DNA of 64,000 nt from NCBI RefSeq assembly GCF_003334335.1, contig NZ_QOWQ01000011.1. One strand, written 5' to 3'. This document shows positions 4,320 through 6,963 of this stretch, piece by piece. A model generated the notes under the pieces. The model was given only the letters and a program-made list of their open reading frames with translations, was not told where the DNA came from and searched no databases. Made by a program: the position numbers and the translations under genes. Numbering within the stretch: the stretch's first letter is position 1; each line of letters begins with the position of its first letter. This stretch comes from Escherichia coli. Its GTDB lineage: Bacteria; Pseudomonadota; Gammaproteobacteria; Enterobacterales; Enterobacteriaceae.

Positions 4320-5135
4320 TTATTGGTCAAATGGCGCTTCGTGTTTAAGAACTTTATCGATCACATCCAGTACGCCTTCACGGTTATTGGAGCCTGCGCG
4401 GTATTTTGCCGCTGCGACGACCGCGCTACCGGCATTTTCCATTGCAAAACTAAAGCCTGCCTGACGCAGCATCTCAATATCGTTACCGCCATCGCCAAAG
4501 ACCACCACTTCGCTGTCGTCTATTCCCCATAATTTCTGCAGTTGGCGAAGGCCATTGGCTTTATGTACGCCGGGGATAATCAGATCGATGCTGCCGTTGC
4601 CGGTGTGGACCGACACCATAATATCGCCGATGGCCTCATGTAATGCTTTTTGTACTTGTGGAATCAGTTCATCGGAAAGATTCAGGCCAAACTTAAAGAA
4701 GATATCCTCTAAGTTGTCAAAGTTATCGACGTATTCCAGACGGTGATAATACATTTCCGCCACCGTTTTCATGGCATCGTCATATTTTTTGAGTGTATAG
4801 GCACTATTTTTTCCGCAGGCAATAATTTCCACTTCCGGGCGCGTCAGCAAATGTTCCACGACAGTAGCAAACGCATCCTTCGATAGCTCGCCATTAAAAA
4901 CATCTTTGCCTTCGCTCACTACCCAGCCGCCGTTTTCAGCCACAAAGGCAATTTCATTAGCAATTTCAGGGAAGAAAGAGATCAACTGATAATATTGATT
5001 CCCGCTGGCGACTACAAAGCGAATTCCTTGTGCTTTCATTTGCTGATACTGAGCCATAAACCGCTCACGGTTATAGGTTTTTTGATCGCTTAAGAAAGTA
5101 CCATCCATGTCTACCGCAATTAATTTAATGCTCAT
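4320..5135 (-). CDS. ybjI: HAD-superfamily (Cof-type) sugar/flavin phosphatase
   Basis: DxDGT motif in IAVDMDGTFL near N-terminus; ATG at 5133-5135 chosen over the upstream TTG; start overlaps the ybjJ stop. Confidence 0.85.
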   Translation of the reverse strand: MSIKLIAVDMDGTFLSDQKTYNRERFMAQYQQMKAQGIRFVVASGNQYYQLISFFPEIANEIAFVAENGGWVVSEGKDVFNGELSKDAFATVVEHLLTRPEVEIIACGKNSAYTLKKYDDAMKTVAEMYYHRLEYVDNFDNLEDIFFKFGLNLSDELIPQVQKALHEAIGDIMVSVHTGNGSIDLIIPGVHKANGLRQLQKLWGIDDSEVVVFGDGGNDIEMLRQAGFSFAMENAGSAVVAAAKYRAGSNNREGVLDVIDKVLKHEAPFDQ

Positions 5136-6343
5136 CAACTATTCTCCATCGCCGTCTGCGTTTTGGTATCGGGTTTGGCGACGGCTTTCGCGACAATAGC
5201 CGCGAGAATAACCAGCGCCAGTACAACCAGCATTGCACTACGTAATCCATAATGTTCGCCGAGATAGCCCAGCAGCGGCGGCCCGACGAGGAAAGCCAGA
5301 TAACCGGTCGTTGCTACCACACTGACGCGGGTTGGTGCATCGGGGCCGGTATCGCTGGCGGCAGAAATGGTCAGCGGGAAGCCCAGCGAGGCACCCAGTC
5401 CCCAGAGTACAACAGACACCCCAGCGACCCAGGCGCTATCGACAAAAATAATCAGCCCAATACCCAACGCCCCCATTAGTGCACTGGCCCGAACCACGGC
5501 AACGCGACTGTAACGGTCGATGAACCAACCGCCGGTGAAGCGTCCAACGGTCATCCCCAGGGTAAAACCGGCATAAATCAGCGAGCCGGAAGTAGGGCTA
5601 AAACCGTGACCGTCAACCATTAATAAGGGTAACCAGTCGTTGGCAGAACCTTCGGCAAAGGCCATCGCCAGCACCACAACACCTATCAGCAGCAACTGGA
5701 TATCGCGATAAAAAGGTACGCCTTTTTCGCCATGCTGGGTGCCATCGGCAGCATTTTTGCCCGTACCGTCAGGGATTGCCTGAATGGCGATATAAATAGG
5801 TGCGATACCTACCAGCGCCGCCAATAAAATGTGCACCGTTGCCGGAACGCCAAAGGCCGTCAGTGCCATCCCGACACCTGCGCCTGCCAGCGTGCCCAGG
5901 CTATAAAAACCGTGCATCATCGGCAAAACCGTCTTATTCATTTCTCGCTCAACGGCAGCACCTTCAACGTTTATCGCCACTTCCGCAGAACCAAAACTTG
6001 CCCCAAAGACGCCGAGACCAACGGCAAAGAGCAGGGGCGATGTCAGCCAGAGTGCCAGACTTAATATCATCATCCCGATCAATGCGCAGGACATCGTGAC
6101 CAGGATGACATTACGTGTCCCAAAGCGTTTCACTAACCACGCCGAGCAGAGAATACCGCTCATCGAACCGATCGACAGACCAAAGAGAACACCGCCCATT
6201 TCAGCGATCGAGACAGAGAGAATATCGCGGATAGCAGGCGTACGGGTTGCCCAGGACGCCATTAACAGGCCTGGCAAAAAGAAGAACATAAACAGCGCCC
6301 AGGTTCGGCGTTTCAATGCATTACGTGAAGAATTTACGGTCAT
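5135..6343 (-). CDS. ybjJ: MFS-family inner-membrane transporter of unknown substrate, 402 aa
   Basis: 402-aa ORF with roughly 12 hydrophobic segments; stop overlaps the ybjI start (ATGA on the minus strand). Confidence 0.85.
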
Positions 6344-6426
6344 AGATCACGTCAAAATAAGAAGAGGGAAGACAACATTAGCAAGGTTGTGTACATTTGT
6401 ACACAATTGCAGAGAGAGGAAATGAC

Positions 6427-6963
6427 ATGCGTCGCGCTAACGATCCGCAACGGCGAGAAAAAATTATCCAGGCCACGCTGGAGGCGGTGAAACTTTACGG
6501 AATACATGCTGTTACGCACCGCAAAATTGCTACCCTTGCCGGGGTACCGTTGGGATCGATGACCTACTATTTTTCAGGAATTGATGAGTTGTTACTGGAG
6601 GCGTTCAGCAGTTTTACTGAGATCATGTCCCGGCAATATCAGGCATTTTTTAGCGATGTTAGTGATGCTCCGGGCGCATGCCAGGCTATCACCGATATGA
6701 TCTACAGCTCACAGGTTGCAACGCCGGATAACATGGAGCTGATGTACCAGCTCTACGCGCTGGCTAGCCGAAAACCGCTATTAAAAACGGTAATGCAAAA
6801 CTGGATGCAGCGCAGTCAGCAAACGCTCGAACAATGGTTTGAACCCGGAACCGCCCGCGCGCTTGATGCGTTTATTGAGGGGATGACGCTGCATTTTGTC
6901 ACCGACCGTAAGCCGCTATCGCGCGAGGAGATTTTGAGGATGGTTGAGAGGGTTGCAGGGTAG
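6427..6963 (+). CDS. rcdA: TetR-family transcriptional regulator RcdA (YbjK)
   Basis: N-terminal TetR HTH; ATG at 6427 gives [15 protein letters not shown]; divergent from ybjJ. Confidence 0.85.

Follow-up and report, generated by a model that had tools for sequence, protein, structure and literature searches.

The TetR-family regulator RcdA, its operator and the divergent ybjJ-ybjI transporter-phosphatase operon of Escherichia coli

The rcdA / ybjJ-ybjI locus and its products

In the 64-kb stretch of E. coli DNA analyzed here (the window), rcdA (ybjK; 6427–6963, plus strand) and the ybjJ-ybjI operon (minus strand) diverge from an 83-bp control region at 6344–6426. The open reading frames give RcdA, a TetR-family regulator, a length of 178 aa counted from the ATG; the annotation does not use the in-frame TTG further upstream, at 6397. 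In the operon, ybjJ (5135–6343) comes first and encodes an MFS transporter of 402 aa; ybjI (4320–5135) follows and encodes a Cof-type HAD-IIB phosphatase of 271 aa. An earlier sequence-only reading had described a TetR-family gene divergent from an MFS transporter gene across exactly this intergenic region, and the coordinates, strands and Pfam domains agree with it; the span that it gave, 5135–6963, covers ybjJ and rcdA but omits ybjI. Identical DNA in RefSeq is annotated ybjH, ybjI, ybjJ and rcdA, with 100% identity to E. coli chromosomes, and the locus is part of the E. coli core, being carried by 5423 of 5426 complete genomes. It is also already well known (Shimada et al. 2012, PMC3535384). 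This is the same locus as RcdA (YbjK)/ybjJI of E. coli K-12 (PMC3535384), and DNA, protein and palindrome show no sequence difference. The regulator, its operator, the repression of ybjJI and crystal structures have all been published, and the locus is a known system.

Base 5135 is common to the ybjJ stop codon (TGA, 5137–5135) and the ybjI start codon (ATG, 5135–5133), which bears out the stop–start overlap noted earlier; the overlap would be four bases if ybjI started at the TTG at 5138. Wherever both genes are present (70 species), stop and start overlap or abut (−11 to 0 nt), an arrangement that amounts to conserved translational coupling.

RcdA carries a TetR-type helix-turn-helix at its N-terminus (Pfam TetR_N, PF00440, residues 13–59, E 2.2e-07) and an all-helical ligand/dimerization domain at its C-terminus (TetR_C_31, E 3.4e-09), and it also matches TetR_C_6, a BetI-type C-terminal domain. 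The PDB chains 5x5i, 7acl, 7acm and 7aco, all named RcdA, are identical in sequence to the protein in the window. The best non-self family matches are EbrA from Streptomyces (PDB 3hta, E 2.1e-21) and BetI models (E 2.7e-17). RcdA is not itself BetI, since its score of 63 bits falls well short of the cutoff for BetI, 201; there are also no bet genes nearby.

In YbjJ, matches to MFS_1 (PF07690) span residues 9–396 and include both six-helix halves, and a crude hydropathy scan finds ∼11–12 hydrophobic segments. All NCBIfam matches fall far below their cutoffs (the best scores 36 bits versus 395), so the transporter cannot be assigned to a substrate-defined subfamily from sequence. YbjI scores 192.7 bits against the Cof-type HAD-IIB model TIGR00099 (cutoff 137) and matches Pfam Hydrolase_3 (E 3.6e-55). 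Both catalytic motifs are present: motif I, the DxDGT recognized in the earlier reading, is DMDGT at residues 9–13, and motif IV is GDGGND at residue 214. The RefSeq name of the protein is 5-amino-6-(5-phospho-D-ribitylamino)uracil phosphatase.

The operator and repression of ybjJ-ybjI

The ybjJ-rcdA spacer contains a perfect 9 + 9 inverted repeat with a 2-nt gap at 6387–6406, TTGTGTACA-tt-TGTACACAA, whose core is TGTAC-N4-GTACA. An inverted repeat of equal quality arose in 9 of 20000 shuffles of the 83-bp spacer. The palindrome, like its full core, occurs only once in the window, where half-site matches are not above chance (10 versus 11.6 expected). Its sequence is identical to the published RcdA footprint, TTGTGTACAttTGTACACAA, obtained with DNase I (PMC3535384). 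SELEX, EMSA and footprinting all show RcdA binding to this spacer, which has the highest affinity among the genomic targets of the protein, and in an rcdA mutant both ybjJI mRNA on Northern blots and ybjJ-lacZ activity increase, as expected for derepression (PMC3535384).

The sequence-only reading, which cast RcdA as the repressor of the divergent ybjJ-ybjI genes, is therefore correct on this point but not new. Two of the experiments that it called for, EMSA on the intergenic region and transcript analysis of ybjJ-ybjI in an rcdA mutant, had been published in 2012, and their results (PMC3535384) are the opposite of what it had named as counting against it, namely no RcdA binding and unchanged ybjJ-ybjI expression.

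Directly downstream of the operator lies a block, cTTGcTA(a/g)TGTTGTC, that is at least 90% conserved among 77 distinct upstream sequences, and the remainder of the spacer outside the operator and this block is not so conserved. Reading the promoter elements from this conserved block, we infer an extended −10 element, TGcTAATGT, at 6375–6383 (minus strand) and, a further 17 bp upstream, a −35 element, TGTACA, at 6398–6403 (minus strand), which would place the −35 inside the operator. A simple σ70 scan makes no call at the predicted extended −10, and a generic σ70 and terminator scan of 3900–7200 returned 4 promoter-like matches versus 3.6 expected from shuffles. The one match facing ybjJ, inside rcdA (6491–6463), was discarded because its conservation does not extend beyond E. 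coli K-12-like sequences.

Our full explanation, which we consider very probable, is that an RcdA dimer bound to the single palindrome at 6387–6406 represses ybjJ-ybjI by promoter occlusion. The operator would overlap the −35 and spacer of the predicted ybjJ promoter, and RNA polymerase would consequently be excluded and the translationally coupled operon kept off. Loss of RcdA, or presumably its release by a small ligand, would let the operon be expressed, yielding the MFS pump YbjJ together with the phosphatase YbjI; tolerance to imidazolium organic cations is the one established consequence of RcdA loss. Binding, footprint, repression and this phenotype were shown by others. Occlusion by one dimer fails to explain two published properties of RcdA (PMC3535384): its binding is cooperative and multi-copy, with more than 10 gel-shift bands, and rcdA is positively autoregulated from the same spacer, such that the two promoters give opposite lacZ responses.

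Those opposite responses could arise indirectly if loss of RcdA frees polymerase to occupy the ybjJ promoter and thereby shuts an overlapping rcdA promoter, with RcdA merely silencing a competitor. In a spacer of 83 bp the two promoters must overlap, and the predicted ybjJ elements (6375–6403) fill the only room for an rcdA promoter upstream of 6427. The argument is purely inferential, however, and the operator would overlap an rcdA promoter located there as well, in which case self-repression and not relief would be expected; the organization may also differ where the spacer measures 154–182 bp. We regard this account of the autoregulation as rather unlikely.

Repression through the ybjJ operator resembles the TetR/TetA and QacR/QacA systems, in which a TetR_N helix-turn-helix regulator with a helical ligand domain is paired divergently with an MFS pump and a palindromic operator covers the pump promoter. 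The RcdA palindrome likewise lies near the regulator's own gene and, as predicted above, over the promoter of the adjacent target. The systems differ in that the RcdA locus has one operator rather than two, RcdA also binds cooperatively at many other loci, some of which it activates (PMC3535384), it has no known high-affinity inducer, and its pump gene carries a co-translated phosphatase gene.

Conservation of the operator and the regulator–transporter pair

The core TGTAC-N4-GTACA is retained in all 72 enterobacterial species that have a full-length rcdA, and in nearly all of these it lies 43–46 nt upstream of the ybjJ ATG (52 and 40 nt in two exceptions, loci L042 and L046). Spacer length is 82–87 bp in most of these species and 154–182 bp in Salmonella and Raoultella-type loci. 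In the expanded spacers the operator remains 45 nt from ybjJ and lies 89–117 nt from rcdA, so its distance is fixed relative to the transporter gene and not relative to the regulator gene. Six species lack rcdA, and the operator core is lost in five of them and degenerate in the sixth. A scan of 1.1 Mb of enterobacterial loci gave 73 strict operator matches, all upstream of ybjJ, with 1.05 expected by chance. This co-conservation of operator and regulator and the anchoring of the operator to ybjJ are additions of the present analysis.

The YbjJ family comprises 681 representatives at E ≤ 1e-30. The distant YbjJ homologs are 44–49% identical to YbjJ, and the RcdA homologs adjacent to some of them are 32–44% identical to RcdA. 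Each distant transporter gene with an adjacent RcdA homolog has two GTAC-N4-GTAC sites just upstream, and none were found upstream of the six without one. At one such locus (L085) the sites precede the transporter gene even though the RcdA homolog is convergent and downstream. The recurrence of both the operator and the RcdA–YbjJ pairing in distant lineages suggests that RcdA ancestrally acted at the promoter of the transporter gene.

These patterns bear on the view that RcdA is chiefly a global, nucleoid-like regulator of stress and biofilm genes (csgD, appY, sxy, rsd, rmf, B12 transport), for which the ybjJ site is mainly autoregulatory and control of ybjJI a by-product. SELEX identified about 30–40 RcdA targets, csgD, rsd and rmf are activated (PMC3535384), and the cooperative binding, the positive autoregulation and RcdA-dependent biguanide and B12 phenotypes fit such a role. 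An autoregulatory site, however, would not be expected to hold its distance from ybjJ as the spacer expands on the rcdA side, nor to sit before the transporter gene at L085, and both the uniqueness of the full palindrome in the window and the persistence of operator and pair in distant lineages also speak against it. We therefore consider it quite unlikely that RcdA is chiefly a global regulator with incidental control of ybjJI; the global-regulator and ybjJ-repressor views of RcdA are nevertheless compatible and not mutually exclusive.

Effectors, transport and the place of YbjI

The earlier statement that ligand and transporter substrate are undefined is only partly up to date, as several compounds have been linked to the system. 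Loss of rcdA confers tolerance to imidazolium ionic liquids, which papers citing Frederix 2016 attribute to YbjJ; loss-of-function mutations in rcdA recur in ionic-liquid selections, and ΔrcdA strains are tolerant. The RcdA P7Q substitution, cited secondhand, is described as derepressing YbjJ, and [C2mim]Cl induces ybjJ 3.2–3.7-fold. TMAO binds RcdA, and acetate has been proposed as an effector. Of these two, the only reported effectors, TMAO binds weakly (Kd 7 mM) and acetate acts in the wrong direction for an inducer, increasing DNA binding. Among the nearest relatives of RcdA, BetI senses choline and EbrA binds multiple drugs; both are organic-cation sensors, and TMAO and imidazolium, which have been associated with RcdA, are similar in kind.

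A parallel exists in EilR/EilA of Enterobacter lignolyticus, which responds to imidazolium and cationic dyes and likewise provides imidazolium tolerance through a TetR-controlled MFS pump. EilR has two 24-bp operators with inverted 11-bp TGTCCAACTTT halves, whereas RcdA has a single TGTAC-N4-GTACA; the ybjJ-rcdA spacer contains one such palindrome and no eilO-like sequence. EilR inducers bind at nM–μM concentrations, and none of this kind is known for RcdA. PDB sequence matches to RcdA (E ≤ 1e-5) consist of RcdA itself and entries with pre-2012 codes; with no non-self post-2012 entry among them, the EilR structure is not among these matches. As the operators also differ, orthology of the two systems was rejected.

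We tentatively propose, as a possibility that we do not hold to be the likelier outcome, that RcdA and YbjJ, together with the TGTAC-N4-GTACA operator, make up a module of ancient origin and horizontal mobility that senses and exports small nitrogenous organic cations and is common, operator included, to the Enterobacteriaceae and distant high-GC lineages, and that several "global" ΔrcdA phenotypes (biguanide resistance and ionic-liquid tolerance among them) stem from derepression of ybjJ-ybjI and not from other RcdA targets. The cellular phenformin level is unchanged in ΔrcdA, so efflux is no general explanation of rcdA phenotypes. A 2023 metformin/B12 study left ybjJ out of consideration, and a genome-wide metabolome study excluded the ybjJ knockout owing to an injection error. 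The rcdA-mutant phenotypes of the biofuel and metformin studies deserve re-examination in ybjJ and ybjI backgrounds.

The sequence-only reading had further suggested that transporter and phosphatase act on a common phosphorylated metabolite. YbjI would then remove the phosphate from a cytoplasmic phosphoester, for example FMN or ARPP, the product or precursor would cross the membrane through YbjJ, and RcdA would sense that metabolite. The conserved stop–start junction is in keeping with this idea, as are the reported preference of YbjI for FMN and its activity on ARPP, and at one distant RcdA/YbjJ locus (L084) an unrelated HAD gene lies nearby. However, 10 of 80 Enterobacteriaceae species, Kosakonia and Phytobacter among them, have no ybjI beside ybjJ, and eight of these still carry the operator and all or some of rcdA; no YbjI-like gene occurs in any of nine distant YbjJ contexts, whereas the RcdA–YbjJ pair recurs. 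ARPP-acting HAD phosphatases are described as nonspecific, YbjI as a promiscuous FMN/ARPP phosphatase, and the sole reported YbjJ phenotype concerns an organic cation that is not phosphorylated. An Rfam search (E ≤ 1) for riboswitches and other RNA elements found RybB alone, outside the ybjJI operon, and no FMN riboswitch. The absence of ybjI from the 10 species and of YbjI-like genes from all nine distant contexts means that the shared-substrate idea gains no support, and we judge it very unlikely.

The patchy distribution of ybjI is a further addition of this analysis. In the explanation that we favor, the unit of RcdA, operator and YbjJ is old and self-contained, and ybjI was added downstream within the Enterobacteriaceae. 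The comparative results indicate that RcdA has the transporter promoter as its ancestral and conserved target and that the phosphatase is a later, dispensable addition. In its annotation and reported activities YbjI resembles the ARPP/FMN HAD phosphatases YigB and B. subtilis YcsE, YwtE and YitU, and it matches the YcsE-related model weakly (99 bits versus a cutoff of 220); it differs from them as a Cof-type HAD-IIB protein whose gene shares an operon with a transporter gene under repressor control. The riboflavin titer rose when yigB was overexpressed, whereas overexpression of ybjI lowered it by 89.6%, which speaks against a metabolite shared with YbjJ.

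Locus layout and published repression

RefSeq names the genes at this locus ybjH, ybjI, ybjJ and rcdA. The ORF list and the sequence place ybjJ (402 aa) at 5135-6343 on the minus strand and rcdA (178 aa counted from the annotated ATG) at 6427-6963 on the plus strand, with an 83-bp spacer (6344-6426) between the divergent genes. ybjI occupies 4320-5135 on the minus strand, and its ATG (5135-5133) shares one base, 5135, with the TGA stop codon of ybjJ (5137-5135). The sequence-only reading described both the divergence and the overlap exactly; only its quoted span was imprecise, leaving out ybjI itself. 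Domain searches identified TetR_N and TetR_C_31 in RcdA, MFS_1 over the whole length of YbjJ and Hydrolase_3 in YbjI, which has the motifs DMDGT (residue 9) and GDGGND (residue 214) and scores 192.7 bits with the Cof-type HAD-IIB model (cutoff 137).

The 4200-7100 segment is E. coli chromosome, with 100% identity to its matches, and is present at ≥80% coverage in 5423 of 5426 complete E. coli genomes. In several otherwise identical E. coli genomes rcdA, ybjI or ybjJ is split by IS1 or IS2. One such genome belongs to a laboratory strain. Ionic-liquid evolution experiments also yielded IS insertions in rcdA, and the match suggests that rcdA is a frequent loss-of-function target.

Two small genes flank the locus. 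ybjH (3950-4234, minus strand; 94 aa) lies 85 nt downstream of ybjI, has a signal peptide-like N-terminus and gave no family match. A counterpart at this position was detected in Escherichia, in some of the Citrobacter loci and, with 47% identity, in the two Phytobacter loci, and nowhere else; ybjI is directly followed by mdfA in most of the remaining species. On the other side, the sigma-E-dependent sRNA gene rybB (6980-7058, minus strand; full-length Rfam RF00110 match, 105 bits) lies 17 nt past the rcdA stop codon, and the two genes are convergent. Between rcdA and ybjL the terminator hairpin of rybB (CCCATCAACC...GGTTGATGGG, then a minus-strand T-run) is the sole terminator-like structure, so rcdA transcription may stop there too.

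The main interpretation of the sequence-only reading, that the TetR-family regulator represses ybjJ-ybjI, is correct and was demonstrated experimentally in 2012. The EMSA on 6344-6426 and the transcript analysis in an rcdA deletion that it proposed are both in print: the spacer is the strongest RcdA target in genomic SELEX and forms multiple cooperative complexes in gel shifts, and in an rcdA mutant ybjJI mRNA appears and ybjJ-lacZ activity is higher, leading the authors to conclude that RcdA represses the ybjJI operon (Shimada et al. 2012, PMC3535384).

Crystal structures of RcdA are on record (5x5i, 7acl, 7acm and 7aco), and its reported effectors are weak or unusual: TMAO has a Kd of 7 mM, and 10 mM acetate increases DNA binding. 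Selections for tolerance to [C2C1im][OAc], an imidazolium ionic liquid, repeatedly yield loss-of-function alleles of rcdA, and ΔrcdA is tolerant to it; citing papers credit this tolerance to derepression of YbjJ as a pump. [C2mim]Cl raises ybjJ 3.2-3.7-fold. ΔrcdA is also phenformin-resistant and blocked in biguanide-induced B12 uptake, with phenformin levels unchanged, in a study that does not mention ybjJ. The nearest characterised relatives of RcdA are BetI-type regulators and EbrA, both of which sense organic cations; this fits the compounds linked to RcdA so far, but we regard it as only a lead. Orthology to EilR, the imidazolium-responsive repressor of Enterobacter lignolyticus, was rejected because the operators differ and no EilR structure is among the PDB matches of RcdA at E ≤ 1e-5.

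The operator and a predicted ybjJ promoter

The spacer contains a single perfect inverted repeat, TTGTGTACA-tt-TGTACACAA (6387-6406), and an equally good repeat arose in 9 of 20,000 shuffles of the spacer. The single clear RcdA footprint seen with DNase I contains exactly this palindrome (PMC3535384). Its 14-bp core, TGTACAnnTGTACA, occurs once in the 64-kb window, where single half-sites are not above chance frequency.

Immediately next to the operator, on its ybjJ side, the block cTTGcTA(a/g)TGTTGTC is ≥90% conserved, unlike the remainder of the spacer. We infer that this block holds an extended -10 element of ybjJ (TGcTAATGT, 6383-6375), with the operator half-site TGTACA (6403-6398), 17 bp upstream, as the predicted -35; a generic promoter scan made no call at this position. 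The operator would then cover the -35 and the promoter spacer, the geometry usual for repression by occlusion. Occlusion by one dimer, however, explains neither the cooperative multi-copy binding nor the positive autoregulation reported in 2012, where rcdA-lacZ activity dropped in an rcdA mutant (PMC3535384). One possibility is that overlapping divergent promoters compete within the 83-bp spacer and that silencing the ybjJ promoter frees that of rcdA.

Conservation of the regulator, operator and transporter

Using YbjJ as anchor and one genome per species, we recovered 80 loci (79-100% identity), all from Enterobacteriaceae, and sorted their neighbouring genes by tblastn of the neighbour proteins. 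Full-length rcdA upstream accompanies ybjI downstream in 62 species and stands without ybjI in 6; rcdA is absent in 4 species with ybjI and 2 without, and 6 have a partial rcdA gene or a cut-off locus. The operator core, TGTACAtttGTACA, is intact in 72 of 72 loci with full-length rcdA, where only the three outermost positions of either arm vary. In the six species without rcdA the operator is gone (five) or degenerate (one).

The operator is tied to ybjJ, not to rcdA. In nearly all 72 loci the ybjJ start codon follows 43-46 nt after it (the two exceptions, L042 and L046, have 52 and 40), and this distance is kept in Salmonella, Raoultella and relatives, where the spacer is 154-182 bp and the operator 89-117 nt from rcdA. 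The strict pattern TGTAC-N4-GTACA has 73 matches in 1.1 Mb of these loci versus 1.05 expected by chance, every one of them ≤120 nt upstream of ybjJ.

An exhaustive profile-free search at E ≤ 1e-30 yielded 681 representative relatives of YbjJ. We viewed the genomic context of 11 (43-69% identity), nine of which have informative flanks. Three of these nine have an adjacent RcdA homologue (32-44% identical; E 6e-35 to 6e-48, pairwise BLASTP), with the helix-turn-helix segment (PLGSMTYYF in E. coli) nearly unchanged. The homologue is convergent in L085 and divergent in L088/L089 and in L084, a GC-rich contig that also has a neighbouring arabinosyltransferase gene; a fourth context has an unrelated divergent TetR gene. 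Each of the three loci has two GTAC-N4-GTAC sites, spaced ∼21 bp, immediately upstream of the transporter gene (L084 3913-3955, L088 3945-3985 and L085 855-895; for example, TGTACATATGTACA in L088 and TGTACGACCGTACA in L084), even in L085, although its regulator gene is downstream. The six distant loci without an RcdA homologue contain no such site. Regulator, operator and transporter promoter form a conserved ancestral unit.

Enterobacteriaceae have a single site where these distant loci have two. The paired sites recall that E. coli RcdA is reported to bind cooperatively, and the two-site form may be ancestral. L081, with a YbjJ homologue of 69% identity, keeps the mdfA/PAP2 (ybjG-like)/deoR/dacC neighbourhood but is without rcdA and ybjI; in it, ybjJ is preceded upstream by genes for a TonB-dependent receptor and a periplasmic binding protein.

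ybjI and a proposed common metabolite

The stop codon of ybjJ and the start codon of ybjI overlap or abut (-11 to 0 nt) in 70 of 70 cases with ybjI, so ybjI is certainly co-expressed with ybjJ. This coupling, conserved wherever ybjI is present, is what favours the further proposal that YbjJ and YbjI act on a common phosphorylated metabolite, a proposal that found no support here and that we consider improbable. Kosakonia, Phytobacter and others have no ybjI, and most of them retain rcdA and the operator; no YbjI-like gene occurs in the nine distant contexts. ybjI is a later addition to the RcdA-operator-YbjJ unit, lost or never gained in those genera. YbjI is moreover reported to be promiscuous: it is described as FMN-preferring and as one of a pair of E. 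coli HAD enzymes with phosphatase activity on ARPP, a riboflavin intermediate, and such enzymes are regarded as nonspecific. The only YbjJ phenotype involves a non-phosphorylated organic cation.

Overexpression of ybjI cuts the riboflavin titre by 89.6%. Two distant YbjJ homologues have flavin-related neighbours, a RibD_C-domain protein gene (L082, 2493-3080) and a flavodoxin/FMN-reductase-like protein gene (L094, 571-1167). Two cases among nine contexts may well be coincidence, and they are the only hint outside Enterobacteriaceae linking this transporter family to flavins.
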